DNA from: Lentisphaeria bacterium
Lineage (GTDB): Bacteria; Verrucomicrobiota; Lentisphaeria; Oligosphaerales; CAITYL01
Direction: 5' to 3'
Length of the DNA stretch: 64,000 bases
NCBI GenBank assembly: GCA_041648735.1
Contig: JBAZOO010000003.1
Span: forward strand, 53,670 to 117,669
The notes beneath the pieces were generated by a model. It ran no database searches and was not told the origin of the DNA. It saw only the letters and a program-made list of their open reading frames with translations. Every line of letters starts with the position of its first letter. Within the stretch, counting starts at the first letter, position 1. A program made the translations under genes and the position numbers. Shown here piece after piece: positions 6,721-40,918 of this stretch.

Positions 6721-6763
6721 AAAAAACTGCGGGACCCAAAAATGCGACACCGGGGAGCACGCT

Positions 6764-7585: not shown

Positions 7586-7666
7586 AAATGATCGGATGGC
7601 TCATCTGCGGACAGCAAGGCGGTCAAGAAGGCCGCAAACAGCTATTCCCCCGGCCGCCCCAGCCCC

Positions 7667-7688
7667 TGAAATCAAAATTCCTGTCAGT
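7667..7688 (+). repeat. 22-bp direct repeat, left copy (TGAAATCAAAATTCCTGTCAGT)
   Basis: Matches 12572..12593 at 21/22 positions. The two copies bracket the lower-GC two-gene segment 7784..12510. Confidence 0.7.
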
Positions 7689-7783
7689 TGGAAATGTACA
7701 CCAAAGAAAAAGAGCTGATGATTGTCGGATGACGGCACGATTGGTATAATGCAACCATCATAGTTCACAGAGATGCATAAAAA

Positions 7784-24435: not shown

Positions 24436-24663
24436 CTTCATCCCCGGCGGCTTCCGCGCCAGCGTCGCCTGGCGCGCCACCAACTGCCGCTCCTCGTTGG
24501 CCGCGATCTCCCCGTTCAGCCGTTCGACCTCCGCGATCCGGTCGGCCATCAGCAACTGGCCGGGGTCATCCCCGGCCTGACGCTCCGACTTCCGCCCGAA
24601 AAGCCGCTTCGGCAGCTTCGCCACCAGCCGCTTGAGCCGGGCTCTCGGCGTCTTTGCGGTCAT
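24436..24663 (-). pseudogene. short ORF overlapping the DUF499 stop (ATGA); possible truncated IS66-like N-terminal fragment
   Basis: MTAKTPRARLKRLVAKLPKRLFGRKSERQAGDDPGQLLMADRIAEVERLNGEIAANEERQ... The LFGRKSE motif is reminiscent of IS66-family transposase N-termini. The frame stays open through repeat B and antisense across tRNA-Pro (to 24169), so there is no credible native C-terminus. Confidence 0.25.
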
Positions 24664-27600
24664 GTCACCCGGAATCCCGACTTCAGGTCCTCCAGGATCT
24701 TGTTGATCTCTGCGACCGTGCCCTCATCGGGAGTGTGTTCGGCATCGCCGACCTCGATGCGGACTCGGAACTTGATGGGGCAGCCCGACTTGCTCTTGAT
24801 GGCCAGGAGCTGGGGAACGGCGTCTCCGAGATCCTGGATCCCGGAAGGGTCAAGCTCCGCCTCTGCCCATTTGACATTGGTCTCGTGGACTTCCCTGCCA
24901 CCGGAACCACCGCCGTAGCCGCCGCCGTAGCCACCGCCCTTTCCGCCGCTCGTCGCGACCTTGAGCTTGACGCCTTGGGCGGAGGGGTACTCACACGGCC
25001 ACGAACCGGAGGTCGGATCCAGTTCCGTGAACCGGGCGTTCAGTGACGCCGCAATGACCTCGCGCACGGTCTTCCATGGGAGCGTCTTCCCTGACTTCTG
25101 CGACAACGCCGTGGCCACTGCGAGGGCAGTCGTCTGGTCGTTGGCCCATGCGTCCGGCAGGTTCGCGGGCAGGATCTCGGCGGCCGCGATCATCGCCGGT
25201 GGCCGTTGGAGAGAGGCCTGGTTGCTGAGCACCCCGGCAGGGATGGGTTCGCCGAGGATGCTCGCGGGCCCGCTCGTGAGCCAGAGCGCGCCCTCTTCCA
25301 CCGCCAGTGTGACGCCTGCCTTGACCACCTCCTCGCGGGCCTTGGGGATCGCCAGCGGCTCCATGTACCCATTCCGCTGGACCTGGACGATGTTGCCGCC
25401 CTTGAAGTAGTCCACCACGTCCTGCACGCTGATGGCCTCGCCCGGCCACAATCCGGGCAGGCGGCCAGGGGCAAGCAGGGCAGGCGGGATGTCTCCCAGT
25501 TCAGCCGCTTCCGGCAATACCAGTTCAAGCGCGGGATCAGCCATGGCCGCCTCGTCAGGGCGCGAGCGCCACCAGGTACGTACGGAACCGTCGGGACGGC
25601 TGAGTCTCAGCACGAACGATCCCGCGTCACACCCGGCGACAAGAGTGTCGGCGATGGCTTGGGCCTTCAGCATCTTGGGCAGGTGTGGCAACTGCGCGAA
25701 CGCCCCGGACAGGTCCTTGACGCGGCGGCTCGTCTCGCCCTCCCGCCACAGATTGTATGGGCCGTCCGGCAGTAGTGCCTCGGCGGTGATCGAAGAGTCC
25801 TGAATCCGGGATCGGGAGTCGTTCTTGACGATGGTGAAATGCGCGTCTTCGGTCACGTTGATCTTGAAGGCCTGCACCTCGTTCCTGTCCGAAACGGAGA
25901 CGACCGTGCAGTACGCCTGCTTCACCGCGTCGGGGATACGGCCCCGAGCCTTGTCGCTGCTGATGGTCAGGGTCTGCAGGCGCGCCACGTCGACGTTGCC
26001 GTCCTTCTCCTGCTCCTTCAGATCCGACCGGACTTCCTCCCATGCCAGATAGTCGCGGACCCTGGCCGACGCCACCTCCAGTCCGTCCCGCGACGGTGCG
26101 AGCAGGATCAGTGCATTGCGGTAAACCCGGGGTTTCTCCGGGCCGGTCGTCTCATCCAGGTAGCGTTTGGCCTCGGCGCTGGGTTTCCCCGAATCGCTGG
26201 TGGCGCTTGGCCCGAGGATGCCGAAGTGGAACGCTCCGTCGTCCTCGATGTCGCGCGGCCGCGTTGGCAGCAGGTGGACGCGGACGCCTGCTGCGGAAGC
26301 CCCGGCGCTCAGGGTCTTGCACTTGCCGACCTCATCGAGCAGTCGCGCCCGCACCACATCGTCGGACACCCGGCTTGCCGCCACGGCGTGCATCTGAGTC
26401 AAGTTGGGGCGATTCCCCAGCCGCCAGGTATCCGGCAGCAGGTTCTCCTCGGTGGCGGCGTACCGGTCGTCGAGCCAGAAGCTGGTCTGCGCCCAGCGCG
26501 TCAGTCCCTTCTCCAGTTCGATCCGGTCGGGACGGCTGGGGGCGATGAGCACCATCAGGTCCCGGGTGCGCGCACTCTGGCCAATCGGCTGGGAATGCAG
26601 GAAGGTGGCGACAACGGCCTGCTCGACCTCCCGGTAACGAAGCCCCACCGATTCCCGTTGGATGTCGCGAGCTTTGCCGGTCTCGCCTTCGATGATCCCC
26701 GTCCACGCCTGCTTCTTGCCCTCGTGCTCTTCGGTGTCCGCCACCGTCACCAGCTCCCGCATCGCCTCCGAAAGCCCTTCGCGCTTGGGGTCGGCGAGGA
26801 ACACGGCGGGCCCCACCAGGGGGCTGGTATCCCAGCGCTCCGCCTCCCGTAGCGCCAGGGCGAAGGTCCGCAAGACGCCCCGGGTTCGCTGGAAGCGATC
26901 CAGTTGCGTCCATTTCGCATAGAAGACTTCCGTGAGGTCGGGGTGGAACGGGTAACTCCTCAAGAAGCGCTCCTCGGCCTCCGCGCCCTGCTTCTTCGTC
27001 TGCTCGTCGATATCGAACACCCCCTTGATCGCCGCTTGGACGTGGGCGCGGAACGCATCCTTGTCCTTGATCGATTCGGGAGTGAAGAACCGGCGGCGCA
27101 GCACTTCGGCCACGTCCTCCTTCACCACGGGCTCGACGATGGCCTCGCGCTGGCGCTGGAAGATGTCGTACAGCTCGCCCTGCAACTGCCGCCCGAAGCT
27201 GTCGCTTTTCGCCGGATCGCTGGCCAGCAGCGAGGCCACGACACAGCAGCGGTCGACCTTGGTCGCGGCCTGGGTCAGGTACTGGAAGAAGTTCACCATG
27301 CGGTCGCGCCACTTGCGGTCGGCGGAGACCTTCTCCCGGACATACATCAGGACTTCATCGATCAGGATCAGCACGCCCAGACCTTCCTTGACCGGCAGTT
27401 CCAGCAGTTCGGTCAAGGTGTTCTCCGCCGGAGCGGACTCGCGTTCGTCTGGCGACTTCCCGGCATTGAGCACCCGCAGACCTTCCTCGCCCGCCAGTTG
27501 CCACGCCAGGATGCTCCACGGCTGCACCAGCCGCCGGGTGTTGCCCTGCGGGTTCCGCACCTCCATGCCGGTCTCGACATCCAGCTTGTCGAAGCACAGC

Positions 27601-28025
27601 CCGGCCACCCGCGCCCGCGGCGGAGCCTGGCCTGCCTGTGCGTCGCACGCAGACAGGCCGATGGCTTCCTGGAATTCATGCACGGCGGGCAGGTCGGGCA
27701 ACTTCTCCGGGTCGGTGACCAGGTGCCGGAGCGTGATCAGCGTGTGCGTCTTGCCGCCGCCGTAGGTCAGGCTGAGCTGGCGCACCGCCTTGTCGTTCTT
27801 GCCCGCCACCCGCAGCACCACGTCCCGCACCAGTTGGCGCAGGTTGTAGGTGGGGAAGGTCAGCGCAAAGAAGTTGCTCGGGTCTTCATAGGTGGGCCGC
27901 TTGCCGCCCTGCATCATGACTTCATACAGGTCCGCCGCGAACATGTGCAGCGGCAGTTCGCCGGACTTCAGGTCATCCCGCAAGGTGACGACTTCGTGCC
28001 AGCTCTTCCATGGGTTCTTAGCCAT
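24660..28025 (-). CDS. DUF499-type P-loop ATPase (BrxC/PglY-like)
   Basis: N-terminus MAKNPWKSWHEVVTLRDDLKSGELPLHMFAADLYEV....YEDPSNFFALTFPTYNL..L and Walker A LTYGGGKTHTLITLRHL, then Walker B-like VLILIDEVLMY. This is the pattern I recognise for DUF499/COG1483. AGGAGGA lies 8 nt upstream of ATG 28025. A Gly/Tyr-rich linker sits near the C-terminus. Confidence 0.85.
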   Translation of the reverse strand: MAKNPWKSWHEVVTLRDDLKSGELPLHMFAADLYEVMMQGGKRPTYEDPSNFFALTFPTYNLRQLVRDVVLRVAGKNDKAVRQLSLTYGGGKTHTLITLRHLVTDPEKLPDLPAVHEFQEAIGLSACDAQAGQAPPRARVAGLCFDKLDVETGMEVRNPQGNTRRLVQPWSILAWQLAGEEGLRVLNAGKSPDERESAPAENTLTELLELPVKEGLGVLILIDEVLMYVREKVSADRKWRDRMVNFFQYLTQAATKVDRCCVVASLLASDPAKSDSFGRQLQGELYDIFQRQREAIVEPVVKEDVAEVLRRRFFTPESIKDKDAFRAHVQAAIKGVFDIDEQTKKQGAEAEERFLRSYPFHPDLTEVFYAKWTQLDRFQRTRGVLRTFALALREAERWDTSPLVGPAVFLADPKREGLSEAMRELVTVADTEEHEGKKQAWTGIIEGETGKARDIQRESVGLRYREVEQAVVATFLHSQPIGQSARTRDLMVLIAPSRPDRIELEKGLTRWAQTSFWLDDRYAATEENLLPDTWRLGNRPNLTQMHAVAASRVSDDVVRARLLDEVGKCKTLSAGASAAGVRVHLLPTRPRDIEDDGAFHFGILGPSATSDSGKPSAEAKRYLDETTGPEKPRVYRNALILLAPSRDGLEVASARVRDYLAWEEVRSDLKEQEKDGNVDVARLQTLTISSDKARGRIPDAVKQAYCTVVSVSDRNEVQAFKINVTEDAHFTIVKNDSRSRIQDSSITAEALLPDGPYNLWREGETSRRVKDLSGAFAQLPHLPKMLKAQAIADTLVAGCDAGSFVLRLSRPDGSVRTWWRSRPDEAAMADPALELVLPEAAELGDIPPALLAPGRLPGLWPGEAISVQDVVDYFKGGNIVQVQRNGYMEPLAIPKAREEVVKAGVTLAVEEGALWLTSGPASILGEPIPAGVLSNQASLQRPPAMIAAAEILPANLPDAWANDQTTALAVATALSQKSGKTLPWKTVREVIAASLNARFTELDPTSGSWPCEYPSAQGVKLKVATSGGKGGGYGGGYGGGSGGREVHETNVKWAEAELDPSGIQDLGDAVPQLLAIKSKSGCPIKFRVRIEVGDAEHTPDEGTVAEINKILEDLKSGFRVT

Positions 28026-28073
28026 TATGCCAGTCCTCCTGCTCGGCATTGCGTCTTGGATTGCGTCTAACAA

Positions 28074-28154
28074 TCAAATAAAACGCAATCGTTGTTAATT
28101 ATATCTCTTTGTAATTTAGGCTATTACAACTGTATATCTTGGATAGCCTTTGCG
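28074..28154 (-). promoter_or_regulatory. AT-rich spacer inside the operon, candidate internal promoter/UTR for the DUF499 gene
   Basis: Hand count of 28081-28140 gives ~27% GC in a ~60-70% GC context. This and the 27-nt spacer at 35532-35558 are the only sizeable intergenic gaps in the otherwise overlapping/abutting gene string. Confidence 0.3.
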
Positions 28155-29804
28155 TCATAGCTTGGTGTCTTTCGTAGAAACGACGCAATCTGCCATAACA
28201 GTCATCGGGTACCATTTGCCGGCCCGTGTCGTTCCTTCCAGGCGAATACGGTTTTCGTGTTTGAGTTGCCGAACTAAAGCTTGTACTTGGCATCTGGACA
28301 GACTCGGCAAGACTTGGAGCAATTCTTCCAGGCGACTGCCAGTATTGGCATTGTCCCGAATATGTTTAAGCAGCAGCTCCTTGTTGGTTTCTCGGTCAAG
28401 GCCGCGCTTTCTGGTGTAAACGCCTTTTTTGCCGATGGTGGCATAGAACCGTCGTCCCAGAATAAAGCGTCCGTGCGCAACCCGTTCGATTACACCACGG
28501 TCAATCAGGAACGGAATCCGATCCCGCAGATTATCGGGAACTGGTTGATCGCGGCGGACATGGTTGACCACGAGAAAATCAGCCGTTCCAAAACTCTGAA
28601 GGGTCTCCAAGCCGATACGCTCCATCATGGTCAACAGTTTAGGGTCTTGAACCAGACCGTCTAAGGTCAAGGTCACATGCATGCGATCCGTGCCTCTGAA
28701 GTCCGGGAGAGCTTTGGCCTGCTTGACGCTCAACTCGAACATCAGGTTCATCCCCTGCCCCGATCGTTCGACAAGGCCACAACGCGCCAGGATGTCGGCG
28801 ATCCGCCGGTTGCGTGGCGACTGCCGATCCAGGATGTTTTCCAGGGTGATGTCCGGCGGGAAACCACCGGGGCTGTCCACAACGAGCCGTTGCGGGTACT
28901 GGCGAACGAAGACGGGGCCGCCCAACTGGTAGTCGCGGTGGCACACGGCATTCAGCACGGCTTCGCGCACGACCCGTTCATCAAAGGTGAGCACATCGAA
29001 AACGAAGAGTCCGTCCTGATAGTGCTGCTTACTGTTGCGCAGATTAATCAATTCCCACAGCCGGTCGTGAAACGCGAAGAGACCCTGCCGGAACTCATCC
29101 CGCTGTTGAGCCGGACCCGATGCTTCATTGGCCCGGTATTCAAAAATCACCTCGGCCTGCCCAAGCAGACGGCCAAGAGCCTCCCGACGGCCAAAGAGGG
29201 TTAGGGCGGCATAGGTGACACCCTTGTCGGTGATCGCCTCGCAGTCAAGCAGCAACTGCTCCTGCGACTTTGCCGCTATGCCTGAAGATCTCGACTTCTC
29301 CAGCCACTTTCGCCTGAACGCTTCAATGGCATCGCCGTCCAGATCGGTCAGGTCAGCCCCCTTGCATATGTCCGCCGAGAAATCATGACCGACTTCGGCG
29401 AAGATCGCCCGCATCTCCTCCATCGGCATCTCGACCAGACTGTCGCCTTCCCGCCACCAGGTGATCCCCTTGTCCTGGATGGGCACACCCACCGGACGCG
29501 GCGGGATGTCGAACACCAGTATGCGTTTGCCCTCGTGATTGAGCAGATGAAAGTCGACCCGCAGCCGCAACCGTTCCATCAGGCCATTGCGCGTCCGTTC
29601 CGGTTGTTCGAATGCCTTGCTGCCGACAACTTGGCGCGGGCGCTTGTCGGTAATCCCGAACACCACATAACCTCCACCCCGATTGGCCAGGGCGCAGGCA
29701 TACTTGGCCAGGTCGTCGAATTCAAAGGAGTTCTCAGCCCGTTTGAACTCGATATTTTCGCCTTCCTTGGCCTCCAACAGCCAAGCTATTTCGGGAACTC
29801 TCAT
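28155..29804 (-). CDS. COG2865-type regulator: AlbA_2/Schlafen-like N-domain + HATPase_c_4-like domain + C-terminal winged HTH
   Basis: EGENIEFKRAENSFEFDDLAKYACALANRGGGYVVFGI (AlbA_2 pattern), REAVLNAVCHRDYQLGGPVFVRQYPQRLVVDSPGGFP (HATPase_c_4 pattern), and a C-terminal helical wHTH-like region. The start overlaps the MTase stop (ATGA at 29801-29804). Sample lines are ~53-55% GC. Confidence 0.8.
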   Translation of the reverse strand: MRVPEIAWLLEAKEGENIEFKRAENSFEFDDLAKYACALANRGGGYVVFGITDKRPRQVVGSKAFEQPERTRNGLMERLRLRVDFHLLNHEGKRILVFDIPPRPVGVPIQDKGITWWREGDSLVEMPMEEMRAIFAEVGHDFSADICKGADLTDLDGDAIEAFRRKWLEKSRSSGIAAKSQEQLLLDCEAITDKGVTYAALTLFGRREALGRLLGQAEVIFEYRANEASGPAQQRDEFRQGLFAFHDRLWELINLRNSKQHYQDGLFVFDVLTFDERVVREAVLNAVCHRDYQLGGPVFVRQYPQRLVVDSPGGFPPDITLENILDRQSPRNRRIADILARCGLVERSGQGMNLMFELSVKQAKALPDFRGTDRMHVTLTLDGLVQDPKLLTMMERIGLETLQSFGTADFLVVNHVRRDQPVPDNLRDRIPFLIDRGVIERVAHGRFILGRRFYATIGKKGVYTRKRGLDRETNKELLLKHIRDNANTGSRLEELLQVLPSLSRCQVQALVRQLKHENRIRLEGTTRAGKWYPMTVMADCVVSTKDTKL

Positions 29805-32800
29805 GCCTGTTCCTCCAGTGCGAAACGACCCTGTTTGTCATCCTTCACCGCCCCGCGTGCGCCGATGTGGTTGCTGAGGCTTTCCAGTAATGTACGCTCT
29901 TCGCTGCCACGCTCGGACAGCTCGATCAGGGACTGGACGAGGCGGCGGAACAGCTCGTGGCGGCGGAGGCCATTGTCGTCCAGGTATTCGTCGACCTTGT
30001 GGACGTCGCCCGCCCGCCAGAGGTGCATGAGCCGATGGATGCGGTCGATCAGGGGGACCGGACGGCCTGCCTGCCGCGACGCACTCGGCGCAGGCAGGCC
30101 GCTCGGCGCATCATAGCCCATGTTCCGACCCTGGCGCTGCGACCACGGCTTGAGCCTCATCTGGCCGCCGGAACTGGTGCCGCCAGAGTCGCTGTCCTCA
30201 TCGTCGGACAGGTCGGACTCGTCAGACGCGTCGGACTCATCCGCAAGCGGGACGCTTGCGCCACCCTTGGTCGAGATCAGATCCCAGGTGACTTCAAGGT
30301 CGTGATCGGAGATCCCGCAGGCGGTGGCGTAGAGAATGCAGGCTCCGGCGGGGGCTTCCTCGAGCCCGAAGTCATGGCGGTGCAGCAGGTAGTAGGCGGT
30401 CGGGCTGTCCATGTCTCCCAAGGGTGGCGCAACCGTCCCGGTTGCGATCTCTCCGGATGGCAAGCGGGACGCTTGCCCCACCATTACCTCACCAACGACG
30501 AAATCCACCACCATGCGGCGCACGTGGACGAGGAACTCGCCCACGCTCATGATCTGGCCGGGATCGTTGGCCTTCTTGACCACCGGGTGTTTGCTGTAGG
30601 CCTCCAGCGCCGGGCCGGTCGCGGCCCAGACAAAGTCCGGCCCGCGAATCCCCGCGTCCCAGAAGTCCCGCAGCCGCGTCGTGATATTGGCCCGCATCTC
30701 CTCCAGCACCCGGTTGTCCCAGCCCAGCCTGGCGGCGGTGGGGCGCTTTCGGCAGACAATCCACAGGGAGGAGGCAAGGGCGGCGGAGGCTATGCCTCTT
30801 GTCCGGTTCGCCATCTCTGTCTGGATCGGCCAACTGCCGTCGACGATGAAACCCGCCCGGATTATCGCCGACGCCAGCGTCTCCCATGCATCAGGATGCT
30901 TGTGAGCGAAAACAATGACGAGGCGGCCATCCGGCTGGAGGCTCTTCTCGCAGGCCACGAAGGCCCGCGCCATGCCGTCCTCGTAGGCAGCCTTGGACTT
31001 CTCCGCATCGCCGCCGTGGCGGCTGGAATCGTCGATCAGTTCACCGTCATTGGCCTCACGGTCCCATTTCGGCGACGTACTCGCCGCGAAGACCGAGGAA
31101 GGATCCAGCCGCGTGCCATGGACAACCCGTTTGATCCAGACGTAGAAGAAATCCATGCAATCGGAATAGGGAATGGCATCGTAGTAAGGCGGGTCCGTAA
31201 GAACAAGATCAAAGTTGCCAACAACGGTTTCTGTTGCTGAACGCTTCTGCACGGTCGGCTTGGCCAGATCACCTCCGGTATTGACCGCCGTATCAACTGA
31301 CCTGGTTACCGATCCCAGCATCGACTCCCAACTGCCTGATGCACCACCGATAGGATTAGTCTCGGCACAATCCCACTTGATCGGCAGGGCAAAACGGTTG
31401 AACAAGTGCGTGATCTGTTCGTTCTGGGTGTACCAGGATGCCAAGGAGCTTCCATAGTCAAGCATCTTGCTCATAACGCAGGCCAGATATGCCGCAGCGG
31501 CTTCGCGCCAGTCGGGCGGCAAGGCGGCGTCGCTGGTGGCGGTGACGCCCCGGATCTGCCGCACCAGCGTCCCCAGCGCCAGCAACTGCCGCGAGGTGAA
31601 CAGGTCGCACCACCGCATAAGGCCATAGCCCTGGATGGAGAACGCCCGACCCGCGCCACTGCCGCCCCCGGCGGGTGTGGGTTCCGTGGGCAACCCAAAC
31701 GGGATCTCGGCGAAGACGCGCTCAAGTTCGGCTGCGGCGCGGCTGGCGCAGTCGATCTCATGGGCGGTCGGTAGACGGTAGGCTTTGCTGGTCTGGCTCT
31801 CGGTGACCACGGCGGTGGCGACCATCCCCAACCGTCCGGCTTTGCCCTCGAACCGGATGTCCTCCATGGTCATGATGGCCGAGCAGCAGGGACACTGCGC
31901 CCCGGCCCGGGACATGGTGCCCGCGCCGATCCGCTTGTCGTGCTCGCGGCGCTGGGCGGCGTTGCCTCCCTGGGCCGGGACATCGGCGTCGATGCCAAAG
32001 ACCAGGGTGGGGCAACCGTCCCGGTTGCCATCTTCCTGCTCCACCTTCGCAAGCGGGACGCTTGCGCCACCCTTCACCTCCATGGTCAGCAGCACGCGCT
32101 TGTTGGCCTTCTTGCAGAGCCACCGAGTCTTGAGCAGCGGCACGGTAGCCCGGCAGTTCTTGCAGGTGACTGTGCGGGCCCAGAGATAGGCGACCGTCGG
32201 CTTGGCCACCCAACGCGGGTTCCGCTTGTCCGCCAGGTACTCCGCCGAGAACTCGGCGTTCAGCGCCTCGAGGTTCGGAGTGCCGTCGTCCTTGAGCGGC
32301 ACCAGACGCATCAAGGGTGGGGCAAGCGTCCCGCTTGCCTTCTTCTGAAAGCTCCAGAGCTGCTCGACCCTGGCCGTGTCGTACTCGCCCGCCCGAGCAC
32401 TCCCGACAACCGGGTTGTTCATGATGTACTGCTCGATCCGCCACAGGGACTGCGGACTCCGCACGATATGGTCGTAGCTCTCGTGCTGCCAGAACTCGCC
32501 TTCCCGGCCAAGGAGCTTGTTGATTGCATGGGCGGTGAAGGACTTCCAGGAATGCAGCACGTCGGAGAGGGTGTGGTTGTCCCTCGGTCTGACCAACGCA
32601 TGGACATGGTTGGGCATAATGCACCATGCCCCCAAGTCGTACCGACTCCCATCGAAATGCATCAAGGTGTCCGCGACGATCCGGCGAACCTGCGGACTCC
32701 GCAGATGGCACTCGCCCTCGCCAGCGTCCAGCCATGCCTCCATGCGATCATTGAAGAGACGGTAATACTCTTTGCGGAGTTCGGGGGTCAGTTCCGACTC

Positions 32801-33946
32801 CGGGTGAGCCGCCAGCCACGCTTCCCGTTCGCGTCGCCATTGTTCGAGTCTTGGCTTTGGGATGGAATCCGCAAGGCGGAAGGTGACAAAGAAGGCTGTG
32901 CCGGGCTGTGTCCAGTGGGGCAGCCGGCGTTCTCGGATATCGACTGGTTCGTAGGGATTGAAGTACAGAGTATCGTTGGCCCAAGATGATGGTGGGGCAA
33001 GAGTGGGGCAGCCGTCTCGGTTGCCATTTGCCTTTTCGGAATCCGCAAGCGGGACGCCACCCCTTTGCAGAGGCTCCAAGTGCGCGTAGGTCGGGTAGAA
33101 GGTTGCCAACTCCTTGCGCGCCTCGTTCAGCACCCAGCGTCCCCAGGCGCGGACGTGCCAGGCGAGGTCGGCCTTGGGGGCGCGCCCGGAGTCCGGCTTG
33201 ACGAAGCCCGGGATCCAGCTCTCATCTTCCCTGAGCTGTTTCCTCGTCTTCTTCGTGCGGCCGACCAGCTCCGGGTGCGCCCGGTAGAACTCCTCCATGA
33301 AGGCTTCGTCGGCGAGGATGAAATCCGGCAGCGGATGGGTCTTGCCCGCCAGCTTCTGCGGGTACTCCAGCGTGCACTTGAGGATGAACCAGGCGACCGG
33401 GTTGATGTCCACCGCCGTCGCCTCGCAGCCGAGCCGCATCGCCTCGAGCGGGATGGCCCCGCCACCCGCGAACGGGTCGAGCACGCGCGGCGCGCGGCCG
33501 CCATAGGCCTTGCGGATTTCGTCCCGGAACCATTGCAGTTCCTGCTCCCGGTGCGCGACGATCGCCCGGTGCTCCTTGAGCTTGCTCGCACCGCCGGATT
33601 TCGGCTCGGTGCCGATCCAGTTCAGGATGCCGCCCTCGACTTCCTCCTTGACCACCTCAATCACCTTGCCATCCGGCATCTTCTTGCGCTCGGTCGTCTC
33701 CACCACCTTGCCGCCGATGCGCTCGCACAGATCCCGGCGTTTCTCCGGCGTTCCCGGGTCGGGCAGCAGCGTCGCGATCAGCGCCGCCCGGCAAGCCGCC
33801 AGCGGCCGCCGCGCGGGCCAGATGTGCAGCGTCGAGATATGCCCATGCCGCACATTCTTCTCATGCACCGAAGTCAGCGACGCCTGCTTCAGCGGGAAGG
33901 CGTGCTCGATCAGGCGGGGGGAGTCATTGGATGGAATAGTTGACAT
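29801..33946 (-). CDS. DUF1156 / COG1743-type amino-methyltransferase with Zn-ribbon, carrying an in-frame RAYT domain and in-frame REP insertions
   Basis: N-terminus [43 protein letters not shown] (DUF1156 hallmark). SAM motif I [15 protein letters not shown] (33443-33484), Zn-ribbon CKNC...CPCC, motif IV [10 protein letters not shown] (DPPYY at 31181-31195). At 1381 aa it is about 400 aa longer than I expect for the family; the excess is explained by the insertions listed separately. Confidence 0.85.
   Translation of the reverse strand: [1381 protein letters not shown]
30242..30266 (+). repeat. REP1 half element (unit A-prime) inside MTase CDS
   Basis: CGCAAGCGGGACGCTTGCGCCACCC, with hairpin GCAAGCG-GGA-CGCTTGC. 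It encodes [10 protein letters not shown] in the MTase frame. Confidence 0.8.
30423..30482 (+). repeat. REP1 full element inside MTase CDS
   Basis: GGTGGCGCAACCGTCCCGGTTGCG ... GCAAGCGGGACGCTTGCCCCACC, two ~24-nt units in inverted orientation, each an internal hairpin. It encodes [21 protein letters not shown] in frame. Confidence 0.85.
32006..32072 (+). repeat. REP1 full element inside MTase CDS (between the two halves of the Zn-ribbon)
   Basis: GGTGGGGCAACCGTCCCGGTTGCC ATCTTCCTGCTCCACCTT CGCAAGCGGGACGCTTGCGCCACCC. It encodes [25 protein letters not shown] (aa 625-647), and the nucleotide and amino-acid coordinates agree. Confidence 0.9.
32317..32340 (+). repeat. REP1 half element at the downstream edge of the embedded RAYT
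   Basis: GGTGGGGCAAGCGTCCCGCTTGCC. It encodes [11 protein letters not shown] in the MTase frame. Confidence 0.8.
32991..33063 (+). repeat. REP1 degenerate full element at the upstream edge of the embedded RAYT
   Basis: GGTGGGGCAAGAGTGGGGCAGCCGTCTCGGTTGCCATTTGCC...CGCAAGCGGGACGCCACCCC, with a partial duplication and a 5-nt deletion in unit A-prime. It encodes [27 protein letters not shown]. Confidence 0.75.
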
Positions 33947-35083
33947 CTATGAAAGGGCCTCCACGAGAGAGAAAGCGTCCGCCAATGTGGCGACCGAAGA
34001 TCCGGGGTAGCGACGCCATGAACCTTGCCCATGCTTAGAACGTTCAACTACGACTTCCTGTCCAGTCTTGCCGGCCTGTCGCACGCGCCAATCCCATCGG
34101 CGCCAGTCCGAGGCGGTGTAGACTCCCGCCTCGTCCGCAAGCCAGTTCGGTACGGTGATGCGGGTCAAGTCGGATAGGAATTCAGACGCGGAACGAGGAC
34201 GCTTGCTGCAGTCTGGATTGGTGGTAGCCCGCACCAGCCGGGACAGTTTGCTGGAGAAGTACGGCCGGGGCGTCCTCCCGTGCTCCAGCAGTTTGCCCCG
34301 ACGTGAAAAGTCAGCGATGCCATCGTCCACTGCACGAGACTTCTCGAAAGAATCCATCGTCGAGAAAGTCAGCTTCCGCCGGCGCAATTCCGCCTTCTTG
34401 GAACGGGAGAGGTAGTGCTCGTCATGGTAGTCCAGTTGACCGTTCACCAGTTCGTACAAGACCATTCCCACTTGGTAGAGATCGGATTGGGTCAAGTACT
34501 TGGACGGCGTTTCCCATCCCTCTGGCGGAACGTATAGAACGGAGTGCTTGGATGCCTGGATCGGTTGGTCATCCCCGGCCAGCAATGCCACCGACCCAAA
34601 ATCAGAAATTCGCGGGGTGTTCCCATGAAGCAGGATATTCGCTGGTTTGAGGTCGCGGTGGACCATCTGCTGCAAGTGTAGATGGGCAACCCCGGTCAGG
34701 ATACCCGCTGTTACCCTGACCGCGTCCTGTTGACCGAGGGGACCGTCAGATATCTTCCCGAGCAGGCTAACCCCAGAGACATATTCCATCTGAAGACACA
34801 GGAACTGGGATGAGTTAACCGTCATGATCTCGGCATCAAATACTTGAACCAAGTTCGGGCAAAGGGATGGGGCTTTCGTCGCCTCCACAAGCAGTCGTGG
34901 CTCGCGCAGCACACCGGAGCGATTTTCGTGTATGTAGTCATAGACCTTGAGGAAAACATCCCGGTCAAGGTGCGTGTGGCGGGCTTTGAACGCGAACGCA
35001 TTCGCACCTTCGTGGATCTCCACTAGATCGGCATACTTTCCCGTAGCCTTCAAGGCATCACTGATCTGACCGGTTGTCGCCAT
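33947..35083 (-). CDS. Ser/Thr protein kinase (Hanks-type) with uncharacterised C-terminal domain
   Basis: VFLKV (VAIK-like Lys), catalytic loop VHRDLKPANILL, DFG as ISDFGSV, PPE (APE-like), DLYQVGMVLYEL. The stop TAG abuts the MTase ATG (33947/33946). Start MATTGQ at 35083, 1 nt after the upstream stop. A sample line is ~48% GC. Confidence 0.85.
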   Translation of the reverse strand: MATTGQISDALKATGKYADLVEIHEGANAFAFKARHTHLDRDVFLKVYDYIHENRSGVLREPRLLVEATKAPSLCPNLVQVFDAEIMTVNSSQFLCLQMEYVSGVSLLGKISDGPLGQQDAVRVTAGILTGVAHLHLQQMVHRDLKPANILLHGNTPRISDFGSVALLAGDDQPIQASKHSVLYVPPEGWETPSKYLTQSDLYQVGMVLYELVNGQLDYHDEHYLSRSKKAELRRRKLTFSTMDSFEKSRAVDDGIADFSRRGKLLEHGRTPRPYFSSKLSRLVRATTNPDCSKRPRSASEFLSDLTRITVPNWLADEAGVYTASDWRRWDWRVRQAGKTGQEVVVERSKHGQGSWRRYPGSSVATLADAFSLVEALS

Positions 35084-35084
35084 C

Positions 35085-35531
35085 TTACATGACACTCCAC
35101 GCGCAATATGTGGCTCTTTCGACATATTTCAATGCTATCGGTTTTCCACCCCAGAAGGCCGCCTCCATCGTTGCACCCGCCGTGCCCGCGAATTTCTTCT
35201 GCTTGCTGGCAACCGTCTGCGGTGCCACAAGAAGACAGGGTACACTTGCCTGCTTTGCCGCCAACTGGACTACGCATTCCATCTTGCACCGAGAGACCGA
35301 ACAACCTTTATCAACTGCTCGCAATACGGCCACTTTTTCGATCTTCTTGTCACGAATCACCGCATGGACAATGTCTTTCAGCCGCAAGAGGTTCCCCGCG
35401 TCATCATTTTCAGACTGGGGAAATGGTTGCTTTGGCACATCGAGGTTCTCAGCCCTCCCGCCACTGGCGGTACCGTCCAAGATGACCCAGACCAAGTCAG
35501 AGGCATGGATATCAACACCGAGTACTCTCAT
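35085..35531 (-). CDS. small RNase H-fold / RuvC-like protein (DUF3010-like, tentative)
   Basis: MRVLGVDIHASDLVWVIL (beta-strand with Asp, like the first strand of RNase H-like folds), KIEKVAVL....CKMECVVQLA. The resemblance to DUF3010 is from memory only. 148 aa, lower GC, abuts the kinase gene. Confidence 0.45.
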   Translation of the reverse strand: MRVLGVDIHASDLVWVILDGTASGGRAENLDVPKQPFPQSENDDAGNLLRLKDIVHAVIRDKKIEKVAVLRAVDKGCSVSRCKMECVVQLAAKQASVPCLLVAPQTVASKQKKFAGTAGATMEAAFWGGKPIALKYVERATYCAWSVM

Positions 35532-35558
35532 TGCCGGCTCCTTGTTGTCTTATCACTG

Positions 35559-35712
35559 TTACACCACCCCCGCTTCGGTCACTTGCTGCTGCGAGATGCT
35601 TACCCCACCCGTCTCAATCGTGGCCGTGATCGTTCGGGTGACGGCTTGGCTCTTGCTGAACGGGCGGACGAGCAGCTTGTCGAACGGATCCTGCACCCGC
35701 ACGAGTTGCAGT
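35559..35712 (-). repeat. orphan duplicate of the helicase 3-prime end (~154 bp)
   Basis: Aligns with 36817..36970 and includes a 46-bp identical block GGCTCTTGCTGAACGGGCGGACGAGCAGCTTGTCGAACGGATCCTG; overall identity is ~80-85% by eye. It encodes [48 protein letters not shown], versus the helicase C-terminus [48 protein letters not shown]. Confidence 0.85.
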
Positions 35713-35720
35713 GACGCGCG

Positions 35721-35734
35721 CACGGCGTGCCGTG
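35721..35734. repeat. REP2 palindrome (degenerate) downstream of RAYT2
   Basis: CACGGCGTGCCGTG, a variant of CCACGGCATGCCGTGG. Confidence 0.6.
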
Positions 35735-35792
35735 GGCGTACCGATGGGACAGCGCTAGGTGCCCCAAGTGCGCGGGATAGGGGGGGGGCAAG

Positions 35793-35808
35793 CCACGGCA
35801 TGCCGTGG
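35793..35808. repeat. REP2 palindrome downstream of RAYT2 stop
   Basis: CCACGGCATGCCGTGG, a perfect 16-bp palindrome, 26 nt beyond the RAYT2-SLOG stop. Confidence 0.8.
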
Positions 35809-35833
35809 CCGTGCGGATGGGGACTGGGGGGCA

Positions 35834-36814
35834 TCATAGGTACACCACCTCCTTTTCCGGGTTGGCCTCGGAGAGGAGGCAGGCGAGCATGCCGTCGGGG
35901 TTGAGGTTGCCCACGACGAGGCGGTCGCAGTGCTCGATGACGTACTGGTTGCACCAGACGGCGCGGCGGGCGTTGGGGGTATCGAGCCCGGCATCGAAGG
36001 GTGAGGCCAGCAACAGGCGCCCCTCGGCCAGGGCCACTTCCGCAGCACCACGGCATGCCGTGATGCCACCAACGGCATCCAACCCCCAGGGCACGACCCA
36101 GACCATGGGGCGGCGGTGTTCGAGGCAGGCCTTGAACACCGCCTGCTCCATGGGCGAGAGGAAGCCGGAAATGACCGCTTCGCCGGGCTTGAGCGGCAGC
36201 CTGCCATGCGGGTTCTCCTCGCCACGCGAGGCGAGGAAGCCCACCTTTGGCAGGTCCAGAAGGGCGCGGTTGCCGAGGTACTGTGGCTCGGCGCCCTGCA
36301 TGACAGCGGCGAAGTTCTCGGGATTGTGGCGAATGTAGGCACGAATGTTCTCTCGCGCGGCATCGTCGCGGGCCCGCATGTCGTAAAACCGGCTCTGCCA
36401 GAGCTTCTCCCCGAGGGCGCGGGTGACCGCGCCCTTGTACGAGCGCAGGATGGTTGGTATCGAGCCGGCCACTGGCTTGCCGAAGGCCTCCATACGGGCA
36501 CGGCATGCCGTGGCCCCACGTGCCGTGGCCCCGACGAGTTGCAGCAGGCCATGCACATGATTGGGCATGACCACGTACTCGTCCAAAACGGCCCGAGGGA
36601 AATGCGCCGGGATTTCGCGCCAGCACCGGTCCGCGACCTTGCCGGCCTCGTTCTGCACCATGTGCCCGCTGACGACCGTGCCGAAGACCGAGCGCATGTT
36701 CTGGGTGCAGATGGTGAGGAAATACCAGCCGGGGCTGGAGTAGTCCCAGCCCTGGAGGCGGAGGTTCTTGCGGCGCCCCACGGCATGCCGTGGGGGCGCG
36801 GAAAGCGTCGGCAT
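35834..36814 (-). CDS. RAYT (IS200/IS605-type Y1 HUH transposase) fused to a DprA/SLOG-like Rossmann domain
   Basis: N-terminal half: LQGWDYSSPGWYFLTICTQN, HUH VMPNHVHGLL, Tyr motif LWQSRFYDMRARDDAARENIRAYIRHNP. C-terminal half: VGFLASRG.....AVISGFLSPMEQAVFKACLEHRRPMVWVVPWGL...ALAEGRLLLASPF......RRAVWCNQYVIEHCDRLVVG, which resembles DprA/SLOG topology by eye. The ATG at 36814 lies 2 nt after the helicase stop. Confidence 0.7.
   Translation of the reverse strand: MPTLSAPPRHAVGRRKNLRLQGWDYSSPGWYFLTICTQNMRSVFGTVVSGHMVQNEAGKVADRCWREIPAHFPRAVLDEYVVMPNHVHGLLQLVGATARGATACRARMEAFGKPVAGSIPTILRSYKGAVTRALGEKLWQSRFYDMRARDDAARENIRAYIRHNPENFAAVMQGAEPQYLGNRALLDLPKVGFLASRGEENPHGRLPLKPGEAVISGFLSPMEQAVFKACLEHRRPMVWVVPWGLDAVGGITACRGAAEVALAEGRLLLASPFDAGLDTPNARRAVWCNQYVIEHCDRLVVGNLNPDGMLACLLSEANPEKEVVYL
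36048..36062. repeat. REP2 palindrome inside RAYT2-SLOG CDS
   Basis: CCACGGCATGCCGTG. Confidence 0.7.
36499..36528. repeat. two adjacent REP2 palindromes inside RAYT2-SLOG CDS
   Basis: CACGGCATGCCGTG (36499-36512) and CCACGTGCCGTGG (36516-36528). They encode GATARGATACR. Confidence 0.7.
36776..36795. repeat. REP2 palindrome, perfect 20-mer, at the 5-prime end of RAYT2-SLOG
   Basis: CCCCACGGCATGCCGTGGGG, within codons 7-13 of the gene (PPRHAVG). Confidence 0.85.
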
Positions 36815-36816
36815 GG

Positions 36817-39800
36817 CTACACCTCCCCCGCTGCGGTCACTTGCTGCGGCGAGATGCGCACTCCGCCAGACTCGACCGTCGCCGTGATCGTCCGGGGGAC
36901 GGTCTGGCTCTTGCTGAACGGGCGGACGAGCAGCTTGTCGAACGGATCCTGTACCCGAACCAGTTGCGGGGTCGGGGTAGCGCAGTGATAGGCCACGTAG
37001 AGCCAGTAATCGTCGCGCAGATTGCAGGCGCGGGCCCACTCGTTGTCGGTGACTTCGATCTCGCCGATGGATGCCCGCCCCTTGACCTCGATGCAGCGGC
37101 GATCAAAGGTGGGGCAACCGTCCCGGTTGCCATCTGCGGAGTTCGCAGGCGAGACGCTTGCGCCACGCTTTGGCCGCAGCGAAAGGATGTCGAACCCCGG
37201 ATTCTCGGGAAGCCCCGCAGCGCGGGCGAGTTCGGGCGTATGGACAAAGCGCACGTCCGCCCCCGACGCTTCCTCGTAGGCCTTGACCAGGTTCATGGCG
37301 ATCTGTTCGACGTTGGCATCGAGCCGTTCGCGGTCGGCCTTGGCGGCGGAGGGCACAACGAGGGCATGGGCGATGAAGTCCGTGTTGCCGGGCACCAGCA
37401 GCTCCGGTTCGCGGCGGATGATCGCCAAGGCCCGGTCCCGACGGTCGTGCAGTTCGCGCTGCTGATCCTTGATCCGGGAGAGTTCAGCGGCGGCCCCCTT
37501 GTTCCCGTCCCGCGCTTTCGGGGTGAGCTTGGCCCGCGAGGCCGCCAGTTCCGCTTCCTGGAAGTCGAAGCCACGTTCCACAAAGGACTCACGCTTGGGC
37601 AAGGCGGCCATCATCTGGTTTCGGCGGTCGACGGCCATCCCACGGCAGACCCGCTCCATGAGGTAGGCGTTGGCTTGATCGCGCAGCTTGGTTGCCGCCA
37701 CGGCCAGGCGCTGGGCCTGCGGAGGCAGCCCTTCGCCACCGCGCAGGAGCAGCAAGTGTTCCACGGGGCACAATGAAATGTCGGCCCCTTCGGTCTGACG
37801 GACTCCGACGAGACGGCACACGACGGTTTCCTCGTGAGCCAGTCGAGAAGGTGGGGCAACCGTCCCGGTTGCCGTCTTGTCGGTTGCGGAGTTCGCACGC
37901 GGGACGCTTGCGCCACACTCGGGATCGGCTTTCCGTACCACAGTCAGGCGGGCCAGGTGGAAGAGGTAGGGTTTGTCCGCCGTGGGATCGACAAAGACGG
38001 CACCCCGGAGGGCGTCCCGCCCCAGCCGCTGTCGCACCAGTTCGCGGAAACGCTCGAAGACCGGCTCGCCGGGATGCATCCAGATGCAGGACTGCCGGCC
38101 TGCCGGCGCCGCGCCCGTCGCGGCAGGCAGGTCATCCGGGCGCTGGACAGAAAGGTGCCGCGACATGGTGGGCGAATAGGCGTCCATGGCTTCAAACAGT
38201 GGATCGGCCGCCCCTTTCCTGGCGGGCACGAGATCGAAGGTTGAGCCGAGATCGCCGTCCACTTCGATGCCGACCTGCGGGGCGGCCGATTCCACAAAGC
38301 GGCGGACATAGCCGGGGAGCAGGCGGAAGAACGTTTCATGCTCGATTCCCTCGCGCAGGCGCGGCAGTTCTCTTTTGACGTCCCCGCCATCGCCATAGAG
38401 GCGCCGCTCGCGTTCCTCGATGGCCTTGACCTGTTCCTTGGTCAACTGACCGTCGAGTTCCTCGGCCACGGCCTCGGCTCCGTCCCGCAGCGCCCGCTCC
38501 ATGTAGTCCTTGATCGAGACCCCCACGAACACGCGGCCGATGCTGTCGAAGACCTTGTCGGACTTGAGCTGCTTACGGATCTTCTCCAGCTTGTCGAGCA
38601 GCGTCTTGAGCACTCGGCCTTCGCGGGTCGCGGGGGCGATCAGGTTGACGATGCACACGGGATCGTGTTTCTGCCCGTAGCGATGAATCCGCCCCATGCG
38701 CTGTTCAAGCCGGGCCGGGTTCCAGGGGATGTCGTAGTTGACCATGATCCAGCAGAACTGGAGGTTGACGCCCTCGGCGGCGGCATCGGTACAAACCATC
38801 AGCCGCGCTCCCCCCTCGGCGGCGGGAAGGCGGAAACGCTCGATCTGGTCTTGGCGCTCCGTGAAGTGCATGCCGCCGTGAATCTGGGCGATGTGGCCCG
38901 CGTATCCCATGCCGCCGAGTCGGCGCACCAGGAAGTCCATGGTGTCGCGATGCTCGGTGAAGATGAGCATCTTCTCCTGGACGTAGCGGCTGTCCGTGAT
39001 CACTTCACGCAGTCGGTCGAACTTGGACTCGACTCCGGCGTCATGGACGTGCTGGGCGAGGTTACGAAGCGCGACGACCTGTTCGCGTTCCGCGAGGAGT
39101 TCCGCCAGGGACTCGGCGATGACTCCCTGGAGCAGCGTGTCTTCGGCCGCCTCATTCTCCTCGACCCCTTCGGTGGTGCTCTCCTCGTCGGCCGCCTTCG
39201 ACTCGAAGACATCGTCGTCCTCTTTGATCCGGCACTGAAGGGTGAGCAACTGTTCGATGGTGAGTCGTCCAGCCTGGATGTCCTCGATGATCTGGTCCAG
39301 CTTGCCGAGACGACGTTTGAAGGAACACAGCAGCGCATAGGTCGAACTGGCCAGGCGGCGCTGGAACACCCCCATGGCCAGGCGGGCGGCGGACTGGTTG
39401 AGCACCTTGGCCTTGTTGTAGACGTGGCGCAGGTACTCGGTGGTCTCGTCGTAGAGACGCTGCTCACCGACTTCGCCAGCGGAAAGCTGGAAACCGAGGG
39501 TGTCGCATTGCCGGATCGGGTACAGAGGCTGACCGTCCAGGCGAACCATCTCCTCCTTGGTACGGCGGATGAAGTAGTGCTGCCGTCGCTCGGTCGGGAA
39601 GTGCTCGAAGGCCTCGAGCGTCGTCAGGACGTCGGGTTCGAGCAGCCGCCAGAGCGCGTAGTACGGGTAGTCCTTGCCCATGTGCGGCGTGGCGGTCAGG
39701 AGAAGCAAGTGGTGGGCATGCCATGGCAGAGAAAAGGTGGGGCAACCGTCCCGGTTGCCATCTTTCGTGGGGCAACCGTCCCGGTTGCCATCTTTCGCAA

Positions 39801-40671
39801 GCGAGACGCTTGCGCCACCATTGTAGACACCCGCGAGAGCCTCGGCGAGTTTATAGCGGGATGTCTTTCGGATACGGAAGTCGTTGCCACGGTCACAGGC
39901 GAGCTTGTGCGCTTCGTCGAAGACGACCAGCTCGTAGGGCGCAACGGCATCTTCGGCCAGCCGCGCGAAGACGCGTTCCCCCGCCAACGTATCGACACTT
40001 ATGATGACGCGCTCGCTGCCGGGGCCAGCGAATGGATTCCCGTTCTTCGCGTCCTGCCCGGTGACAATGCGGAATGGCAGGTTGAAGAGGACCTGCAGTT
40101 CCCGCTGCCAATTGCCGACCAGTCCAGCCGGAGGCACAATCAGCACGCGGGACAGCAGTCGCCGCGACAGCATCTCGCGCACGTACAGGCCGGTCATGAT
40201 CGTCTTGCCCGCGCCCGCGTCGTCGGCCAGCAGGAAGCGCAACCGGGCATGCGGCAGCATCCGGTCGTAGACTGCGATCCGCTGATGCGGCAGCGGATCG
40301 ATACTCGAGATCTCGGTGGCGAAGGTGGGGTTGGCCAGGTGGCCGAAGGATAGGCGCTCGCCTTCGACCAGAACGCGGACCACTTCAGGCTTCGCGGTGA
40401 AGTCCAGCAGCGGCGGTTCCGCAGTGCAGGGCGGCGGCTCCGGCTCAGCGCCCCCCGACCCTGCGGCCCTTTCCTTGTCGCCCTCGTCCTTGCTGAGATC
40501 GAGGATGGCTTGCCAGGACAACTGCGATGGACGCGACTTCCCGTTCTCCCACCGGTTGACCGTGGGGAACGACACTCCCAGGCGTTCGGCCAGGGCGACC
40601 TGCGTCAGCCCCAGCTTCGCCCGCAGACCCTTGATCTGCTCTGGATAGTCGTCTGTCATTCCGTCCGCCAT
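36817..40671 (-). CDS. XRE-type HTH + SNF2-family helicase + C-terminal DUF3883-like (PD-(D/E)xK-like) domain
   Basis: HTH [33 protein letters not shown]. Helicase motif I [13 protein letters not shown], motif II [9 protein letters not shown], motif III [8 protein letters not shown], motifs V/[13 protein letters not shown]...[24 protein letters not shown]. C-terminal [36 protein letters not shown]. Start at ATG 40671 (alternatives 40659 or 40779). Carries three in-frame REP1 elements. Confidence 0.85.
   Translation of the reverse strand: [1284 protein letters not shown]
37108..37166 (+). repeat. REP1 full element inside helicase CDS (C-terminal nuclease-like region)
   Basis: GGTGGGGCAACCGTCCCGGTTGCCATCT...CGCAGGCGAGACGCTTGCGCCAC. 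It encodes [23 protein letters not shown]. Confidence 0.85.
37850..37916 (+). repeat. REP1 full element inside helicase CDS
   Basis: GGTGGGGCAACCGTCCCGGTTGCCGTCT...CGCACGCGGGACGCTTGCGCCAC. It encodes [24 protein letters not shown]. Confidence 0.85.
39736..39819 (+). repeat. REP1 element with tandemly duplicated unit A inside helicase CDS (between helicase motifs II and III)
   Basis: GGTGGGGCAACCGTCCCGGTTGCCATCTTTC GTGGGGCAACCGTCCCGGTTGCCATCTTTC GCAAGCGAGACGCTTGCGCCACC. It encodes [31 protein letters not shown]. Confidence 0.9.
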
Positions 40672-40918
40672 GTCCGAAAGCTGCCTCCAGTTGGGTGGCA
40701 AAAGAACATGAACCAGACTATAGCGTCTGATATATCGCCGGCCAAGCCCCCACGCGATGACTGCCACCGGCCGACCCATGCAGGCCCCGCGCAGGCCCGC
40801 ATCGAACAGCTTCGGGCGCGGTCATGGAAGCCGGCGGCGGCTTGGCTGGCGACCGTCGGAGAAGGGTCGGAAGGCGGCGCGCGCCCAATGACCTCTCCGA
40901 GGGCAAGGCGGGGTGTTT

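Follow-up and report, generated by a model that had tools for sequence, protein, structure and literature searches.

The locus and its repeats

The window considered here is a stretch of 64,000 nt from a Lentisphaeria bacterium (assembly GCA_041648735.1, contig JBAZOO010000003.1, positions 53,670-117,669 of the forward strand). It carries a defence operon in which two core genes, hmaB (a methyltransferase) and hmaA (a helicase), contain copies of a short hairpin, REP1, that resembles a repetitive extragenic palindrome (REP). Within hmaB lies RAYT1, a domain of the REP-associated tyrosine transposase (RAYT) type. The genes were called with PADLOC hidden Markov model profiles, by which HmaA, HmaB and HmaC occur in one operon; on these matches it is an Hma/BREX-related defence system, and an earlier note on this DNA was right to speak of a defence operon.

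The 24-nt REP1 unit, GGTGGSGCAASCGTCCCGSTTGCS, was located by pattern search with up to 3-5 mismatches. The window holds 14 full units and 1 truncated one, 15 altogether, which form eight sites between 30242 and 39819 (Table 1): 2 singles, 5 tail-out inverted dimers and 1 dimer with a tandemly duplicated arm. Six of the eight are thus tail-out inverted dimers (59-84 nt), the doublet arrangement of a REPIN; other loci, too, frequently have dimers. All eight lie within two uninterrupted minus-strand open reading frames (ORFs), 29801-33946 (1381 aa) and 36817-40779 (1320 aa), so that the eight in-frame palindromes reported by the earlier note were recovered with both frames intact; six of its coordinates stand, while those given as 32317 and 32991 become 32316 and 33002. 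Its further statement, that the other 54 kb of the window hold no copy, is borne out with up to 5 mismatches allowed. No match arose in 100 dinucleotide-preserving shuffles of the window, and the chance of eight uniformly placed sites all hitting this 9.6 kb of 64 kb is ~3e-7.

Table 1. REP1 sites, the embedded transposase domain and the core genes of the operon (positions in the window).
Feature	Position	Strand	Remarks
Single REP1 unit, AAG-stem type	30242-30265	-	Acidic C-terminal linker of HmaB; encodes GGASVPLA; 0 mismatches; folding free energy (dG) -10.2
REP1 dimer (REPIN), 60 nt	30423-30482	-	HmaB; frame differs from other dimers; z = -6.3
REP1 dimer, 66 nt	32006-32071	-	HmaB site B, beta-hairpin loop after KRVLLTM
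Single REP1 unit, 3' flank of RAYT1	32316-32339	-	HmaB; encodes ASGTLAPP; predicted local distance difference test (pLDDT) < 50 in RAYT model
Degenerate REP1 dimer, 5' flank of RAYT1	33002-33060	-	HmaB; 3 mismatches and a 6-nt deletion; disordered in model
REP1 dimer, 60 nt	37108-37167	-	HmaA, just before NOV_C/DUF3883 core (RRCIEVKG); net +63 nt vs L119
REP1 dimer, outer length 68 nt	37850-37917	-	HmaA; arms in different frames; net +66 nt vs L119/L120
REP1 dimer, 3' arm tandemly duplicated at 30-nt offset, 84 nt	39736-39819	-	HmaA SNF2 N-lobe loop; net +72 nt; z = -6.9
RAYT1, Y1/HUH REP-associated tyrosine transposase domain	32342-32992	-	In frame in HmaB, about aa 319-535
hmaB, DUF1156 N6-adenine methyltransferase, 1381 aa	29801-33946	-	HmaB profile 4e-115; hosts five REP1 sites, RAYT1, one REP3
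hmaA, HTH-SNF2 helicase with NOV_C/DUF3883	36817-40779	-	HmaA profile 1e-142; 1320-aa ORF, source annotation 1280 aa; hosts three REP1, one REP3
hmaC, DUF499 ATPase, third core gene	24660-28073	-	HmaC profile 3.6e-74; without REP1 here

Hairpin architecture of REP1

Each unit starts with GGTGG, followed by an 8-bp stem closed by a 3-nt TCC loop. The dG of the fold is about -10 kcal/mol, with z-scores of -3.2 to -4.4 for singles and -3.4 to -6.9 for dimers. At two positions the arm types carry swapped base pairs (C-G against G-C at the base of the stem, G-C against C-G within it), and this compensatory change indicates selection on the hairpin. The arms of a dimer are inverted and separated by a spacer of 12-40 nt with the loose consensus AATTCCG...AGAT, and the unit contains no stop codon in any of the six frames. 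Orientation is uniform, as first noticed: read along the coding strand, every dimer of the window has its AAG-stem arm first and its AAC-stem arm second. Across all collected in-frame dimers the same polarity prevails by 19 to 3, a count inflated by orthologous sites.

The tag GTGG is present in nearly all REP1 copies, and GTAG appears in variant copies of two other loci (L021 and L030). By tag, hairpin and doublet structure, the eight sites belong to the GTAG-tag superfamily of REP/REPIN elements, as its GTGG variant. They depart from the extragenic, many-copy habit of REPs in that, in the window, 8/8 sites are intragenic. The target-site duplication looked for as the mark of a miniature inverted-repeat transposable element is not seen in the DNA alignment to empty sites.

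Insertion into genes

REP1 contributes the peptides GGASVPLA, GNRDGCPT, ATGTVAPP and GQASRLP to its hosts. Which of them appears depends on the frame: the dimer at 32006-32071 gives GGASVPLA...GNRDGCPT, and that at 30423-30482 gives GQASRLP...ATGTVAPP from the same DNA. The sites are also missing in close homologues. All three HmaA sites are lacking in helicases that are 79-90 % identical, and four HmaB homologues (71-74 % identical) have neither the five REP1 sites nor the transposase. DNA that is read in differing frames and is missing in close relatives points to mobile DNA and not to a protein motif, as the earlier note had argued; in other genomes the unit is found both between genes and in genes unrelated to these two.

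It could still be asked whether a low-complexity linker or short linear motif was selected in both proteins, the palindrome being incidental, since the same peptides recur and always in loops. This is hardly credible. At 30423-30482 and 37850-37917 other frames of this DNA are used, the stem changes are compensatory at the DNA level, and units are found in intergenic DNA and beside RAYT genes of other genomes; the frame differences, together with the absence of sites from the 79-90 % identical homologues, effectively refute it.

The individual sites differ in distribution. In HmaB, the single unit at 30242 is common to the homologues P0002, P0003 and P0017 and missing in P0004, and the dimer at 30423-30482 is orthologous in P0002/P0003 and missing in P0004/P0007/P0021/P0031. 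In HmaA, the dimers at 37108-37167 and 39736-39819 are each missing in 18/19 aligned homologues and present in P0140. The third, at 37850-37917, is missing in 19/19 and is specific to the window; its spacer and stem variants are those of the 37108 copy.

Aligned with two REP-free loci (L119/L120), the hmaA DNA is longer by a net 72, 66 and 63 nt. Frame is retained by the net change, with a few host loop codons swapped out; the outer length itself need not be divisible by three, being 68 nt at 37850-37917. Relative to close homologues every site is an insertion, as the earlier note expected, although not the clean one it had in mind. Outer length is a multiple of three in 17/26 genic dimers versus 13/30 other dimers, a difference that is suggestive only.

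Where do the insertions fall in the protein? The earlier note had raised loops against cores, and the mappable HmaB sites are in loops. In an AlphaFold2 (AF2) model of the REP-free homologue P0004 (mean pLDDT 69.5; 88-95 around the RAYT and site B), the five HmaB sites with a gap in the P0004 alignment are all in coil between secondary-structure elements. The 30423-30482 dimer corresponds to the coil after helix 873-894, and the 32006-32071 dimer to loop 380-385 between strands. The HmaA sites lie in variable, indel-prone alignment columns. Unrelated repeat-like inserts are found in the same loops: TESTEDAEKRNTISPSVRSVSSVAN in the helicase of L003, at the equivalent of 37850-37917, and a GDTETRG-rich insert of ~70 aa in P0006, at the equivalent of 30423-30482. 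These loops thus appear to accept several kinds of insert.

A transposase domain inside HmaB

RAYT1 passes the Pfam Y1_Tnp profile (33.4 against a cutoff of 23) and keeps all residues that are invariant in 66 relatives: LPHW, the HxH motif (NHVH), WQ (FWQ) and the catalytic tyrosine (YIMNNP). Its AF2 model has a pLDDT of 86, with the REP-coded flanks disordered, and its best match in the PDB is 4ER8, the Escherichia coli RAYT with a REP hairpin, followed by the TnpA proteins of IS200/IS608/ISDra2. It is also recognised by the NCBIfam model REP_Tyr_transpos (E = 1.8e-19). On profiles, motifs and model, RAYT1 looks functional. A reading of the sequence found no in-frame ATG, GTG or TTG start of its own, and the domain would thus be producible only as part of HmaB. 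An intein or homing element was considered for this insert and rejected, as Pfam gives Y1_Tnp only.

REP1 stands on both sides of RAYT1 (33002-33060 and 32316-32339), and likewise in L026, L114, L122 and L124. Free-standing relatives of RAYT1 (190-260 aa) show the same association: the nearest, P0244, bears REP1 peptides, and the one in L030 is bracketed by REP1 dimers. The latter (L030 5600-6460) lies between two genes of a nuo operon, on a contig with NuoL. Its start codon is in the spacer of a REP1 dimer. The upstream gene has a tail encoded by REP, whose stop overlaps that start as ATGA; on the other side, TCATGA is the overlap at which the next gene begins. Such overlaps show a REP-RAYT-REP unit made for read-through and joined to the operon by translational coupling.

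Among the hits to this clade (P0251, P0269, P0346, P0265, P0291, P0280), RAYTs of ~200 aa bear the name "type I restriction enzyme R subunit" in one source, and some relatives are fused to EcoEI_R_C or HsdS (Methylase_S) domains. These sequences hint at a wider embedding of the RAYT clade in restriction-modification genes.

Other enzyme domains have entered HmaB as well. Pfam recognises a small GIY-YIG nuclease domain in the homologues P0017, P0027 and P0035, which in the aligned P0017 is in frame at the RAYT1 loop. P0025 and P0047 have a Macro domain, located at the N-terminus of P0025, the one aligned. From these alignments, additional enzyme domains seem able to dock quite generally at the RAYT1 loop of HmaB.

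RAYT type and REP type match across Hma loci

REP peptides were surveyed in 120 HmaB homologues, with RAYTs recognised by motif. All 17 motif-detected RAYT-bearing homologues (17/17) have 3-11 REP peptide blocks of the matching type. Among the other 103, 84 are without REP blocks and 19 have 1-3, several of these 19 being RAYT-bearing with variant motifs. REP type follows RAYT type strictly, and two types can be told apart. RAYTs inserted at site A (window, P0002, P0003, P0006, P0018) pair with REP1. In a second HmaB clade the RAYT is housed at site B, the position occupied in the window by the 32006 dimer, and pairs with a true GTAG REP, GTAGACGCGACGTCTCGTCGCGT. Site-A and site-B RAYTs are 58-71 % identical to different free-standing RAYTs and 55 % to each other; since each embedded clade is nearer to separate free-standing RAYTs than to the other, two independent captures are indicated. 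The clade A RAYT is more conserved than the HmaB that hosts it (89 % versus 81 %, 75 % versus 59 %), and the embedded RAYT is apparently kept under purifying selection in both captures.

The flanks (~10 kb on either side) were surveyed in five independent Hma loci with an embedded RAYT (the window and L121-L124). Cognate REPs are present in hmaB in 5/5, in hmaA in 3/5 and in hmaC in 1/5; none was found in the cargo genes, flanking genes or intergenic DNA of these five loci. The RAYT-free locus L119 has no REP1 at any compared helicase site.

RAYT and REPs are probably cognate, to judge from these co-occurrences. The earlier note had presumed as much and placed the RAYT next to the elements; the link stands, through the REP1 copies that flank RAYT1 and the REP peptides that track RAYT presence and type in the 120 homologues, whereas the placement does not, RAYT1 being a domain inside the methylase.

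The REP1 family in other genomes

Exact matches to the degenerate 24-mer were found in 30 stretches of ~20 species-representative metagenome-assembled genomes (MAGs), mostly of the Planctomycetes-Verrucomicrobia-Chlamydiae (PVC) group (Verrucomicrobiota, Kiritimatiellia, Lentisphaerae, Planctomycetes), and in 88 metagenome stretches. Other bins with the 24-mer bear the labels Kuenenia (70 % GC), Akkermansia (64 % GC), Vampirovibrionales, Armatimonadota and Ignavibacteria. Either the family crosses phyla or these bins or labels are at fault; the labels that name other phyla look unreliable, and the GC values suggest mislabelling in at least two cases. A phage as origin or target of REP1 was considered and rejected: the 2.9 million viral contigs of IMG/VR contain no exact match.

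Roughly a quarter to 38 % of ~131 unique non-edge sites are in-frame genic, and the remainder are intergenic or at gene ends. Coding status was called from ORFs and a GC1/2/3 test, which is approximate and replaced a 240-nt GC3-phase classifier that had missed known in-frame sites. The in-frame hosts include ValS, NuoL, an RHS protein and other Hma genes. By these counts REP1 is chiefly an extragenic REP family in which the in-frame share is unusually large. The earlier note had weighed the prospect that copies elsewhere are overwhelmingly intergenic and the eight here a matter of chance; the first half has substance, about 60-75 % of the family not being in-frame genic elsewhere, whereas chance does not explain the clustering in the window.

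In one intergenic context (L001 3030-3070), the gap between ssb and its neighbour holds a REP1 unit, which is paired with a hairpin that has a GTAG tag and a different stem type. The context is identical in 12 soil metagenome loci, presumably from one abundant verrucomicrobial species, and these were de-duplicated in the counts. A structured RNA gene around L001 was considered and rejected, an Rfam search giving no match; the locus is an intergenic REP.

Other palindromes and cargo of the operon

The operon contains a second RAYT, RAYT2 (326 aa; ATG at 36814, stop at ~35834), directly after the hmaA stop codon. It has a perfect palindrome of its own, REP2 (CCACGGCATGCCGTGG), in five copies at ~35720-36800, three of which are in frame in the RAYT2 ORF. 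RAYT2 (35834-36814) was rejected as the cognate enzyme of REP1, since it is flanked and interrupted by this different palindrome. Downstream of RAYT2 there is a 157-nt duplicate of the hmaA 3' end, 86 % identical (35560-35716 versus 36818-36974), and this duplication suggests that the RAYT2 element arrived with a foreign copy of the helicase terminus.

A third palindrome family, REP3 (CCTGCCTGC...GCAGGCAGG, 44 nt), is represented at 30058-30101 in HmaB and 38096-38139 in HmaA, both in frame. The two copies are 86 % complementary to each other, and the one in HmaA is an exact 33-nt insertion with respect to L119/L120. Related inserts occur in P0122, P0190 and P0017, at the same or other loop sites.

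Besides RAYT2, the cargo of the window comprises a Ser/Thr kinase, a 148-aa ORF and a Schlafen/AlbA ATPase, and cargo differs among L119 and L121-L124. GC content falls to 0.55-0.58 at 6000-10000, 28000-30000 and 34000-36000, against 0.65-0.73 for the window overall; the second and third of these stretches fall at the Schlafen/AlbA gene and the kinase, as recent acquisition of this cargo would lead one to expect.

Local spread or shared history

Why are the copies confined to hmaB and hmaA? We favour, as fairly probable, that REPs and REPINs served by the cognate RAYT embedded in HmaB spread with a local bias and are kept where frame and loops tolerate them. The RAYT would bind the hairpin on single-stranded DNA and copy or move REPINs, strongly favouring DNA near its own gene. 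The operon would offer almost no intergenic DNA, and the hma genes would be under purifying selection, so that only frame-restoring insertions in tolerant loops would survive. Given enough time, copies would accumulate in hmaB, hmaA and sometimes hmaC, the core genes that remain stably linked, most copies being inherited with the module, and the frequently exchanged cargo genes would stay free of REPs.

Alternatively, the REPs may be historical passengers, brought from a REP1-rich donor and inherited or transferred with the Hma core genes, with the RAYT now inert and the clustering a product of shared history. This is the less probable account, albeit one with a real claim. P0002 and P0003 (77-81 % identical) have orthologues of all five HmaB sites, and L124 has matching flanks and spacers at site C, H1 and H3 (H1 and H3 being the two HmaA sites present in P0140), so most REP1 copies appear old and inherited. 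Frequent exchange of the cargo between hma genes (PMC11232893) also accords with it. On the other hand, the RAYT has invariant catalytic residues and, as a domain, has diverged less than its host. There are lineage-specific gains as well: 37850-37917 in the window only, an extra site in P0002/L114, and two HmaC sites plus one more HmaA site in L124. By sequence comparison, a few copies look newer, namely 37850-37917 and the tandem arm at 39766. Moreover, passive history does not predict that REP type should equal RAYT type in two independent captures.

Several observations weigh against local spread by the embedded RAYT. RAYT1 scores 70.1 bits, just under the 80-bit cutoff of the NCBIfam model REP_Tyr_transpos (NF047646). 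The inserts do not just add sequence: in the L119/L120 alignment they take the place of a few variable host codons. That alignment shows no target-site duplication at the HmaA sites, and the flanks of REP1 yield no convincing consensus, only a weak A at position -2. H1 and H3 are common to a 75 % identical helicase and missing in 79-90 % identical ones, a distribution that needs recombination, precise loss or site-specific re-insertion. As most HmaB sites are common to the 77-81 % identical orthologues, the RAYT may no longer be active and the clustering is possibly mainly historical. Neither excision nor empty-site polymorphism was observed, and transposition, binding and cleavage by RAYT1 rest on inference. 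Finally, the REP1 copy count covers the island and the 64-kb window only.

It is also conceivable, if unlikely, that the pair has been exapted, with RAYT and hairpins as working defence parts: the domain could be an HUH nuclease effector or sensor, the hairpins could regulate hma expression in cis, or loop variation could evade phage inhibitors. Put more narrowly, and with equally low odds, the RAYT would be a working domain of the defence methylase and the hairpins cis substrates for HUH cutting and joining that rearranges, regulates or diversifies loops or acts on invading DNA. The fusion, which arose by two captures and lacks its own start codon, is stable and conserved even between hosts that are 59 % identical; HmaB homologues hold other enzyme domains (GIY-YIG at the same loop, Macro at the N-terminus), and RAYT relatives are fused to EcoEI_R_C and HsdS domains. 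Against such a function, the REP-coded peptides are predicted to be disordered and their frame varies by site, the REP1 family also occurs in housekeeping genes and intergenic DNA, the 2.9 million viral contigs hold no REP1 match, and at least 84 of 120 HmaB homologues have neither RAYT nor REP peptides. If it were true, a transposase-repeat pair would have been domesticated by the immune system, twice independently.

If instead the favoured cis-restricted local copying holds, the locus would provide a compact natural system for studying RAYT target choice, the tolerance of proteins to repeated loop insertions and selfish hitch-hiking on defence islands. For those who annotate defence genes, REP-coded segments and embedded RAYTs are a source of inflation and confusion, as with the ~200-aa RAYTs that pass for restriction enzyme subunits.

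Comparison with known systems

Ogata et al. reportedly described, in 2000, the Rickettsia palindromic elements (RPEs) as palindromic repeats in frame in unrelated proteins, tolerated in surface regions. RPE-1 is ~100-150 bp long and scattered over the genome, and to our knowledge no RAYT is associated with RPEs. REP1 resembles them in lying in frame within the ORFs of unrelated proteins, to which it adds peptide segments. It differs in being shorter (24-nt units, 53-101-nt dimers) and grouped around a transposase, and is probably unrelated to RPEs in sequence. RPEs had been named as the precedent in the earlier note; the in-frame insertion is indeed alike, but the closest precedent is found in the GTAG/GTGG REPs of Opitutus terrae (PMC3733652).

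In-frame intragenic GTAG and CGTC REPs reach their highest number in O. terrae, a verrucomicrobium, where a GTGG tag variant is also present (Di Nocera et al. 2013, PMC3733652). There, families GTAG-17 to -20 occur as singles and inverted dimers and add 7-30 aa in frame to large proteins, many of them DNA enzymes (PMC3733652). Shared with REP1 are the PVC host, the short stem-loop, the GTAG tag mutated to GTGG and the presence of both singles and inverted dimers. Furthermore, the O. terrae peptides GTGVPPV and GRDARAT back-translate to GGTGG, a stem and a GTCCCG loop, which is the architecture of REP1. The stem sequence differs (CGCAAGCG in O. terrae versus CACGGGCG in REP1), and the O. terrae elements are genome-wide with free-standing RAYTs, whereas the copies seen here are in one defence module and the RAYT is internal to a host protein.

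In Pseudomonas and Enterobacteria, the classical REPIN-RAYT systems consist of tens to hundreds of extragenic copies served by one free-standing, vertically inherited RAYT (Bertels & Rainey 2011, PMC3116915; Nunvar 2010). The inverted doublets, the REPs flanking the RAYT, the Y1 HUH enzyme with HxH and tyrosine, the 4ER8 fold and long persistence with slow turnover are features in common. In contrast to a classical RAYT, RAYT1 belongs to an "LPHW" clade, falls under the NCBIfam equivalog cutoff, is fused in frame and resides in a horizontally mobile defence operon.

Hma has been re-described as a DUF499-centred, BREX-related system that takes cargo genes between its core genes (Payne 2021, PMC8565338; PMC11232893; PMC12839542), and this cargo is exchanged often (PMC11232893). 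The window operon, with HmaA, HmaB and HmaC and cargo genes in between, agrees with this picture. Transposase or HUH domains and REP insertions in HmaB or HmaA receive no mention in these three papers, and neither a RAYT embedded in a defence methylase nor REPs confined to a defence module were found in the literature searched.

In-frame intragenic REPs are, as a general phenomenon, already known. What appears new, as read from the sequences, is an obligate in-frame RAYT domain in HmaB, captured twice, together with type-matched REPs that are limited to the Hma core genes wherever the flanks could be examined.

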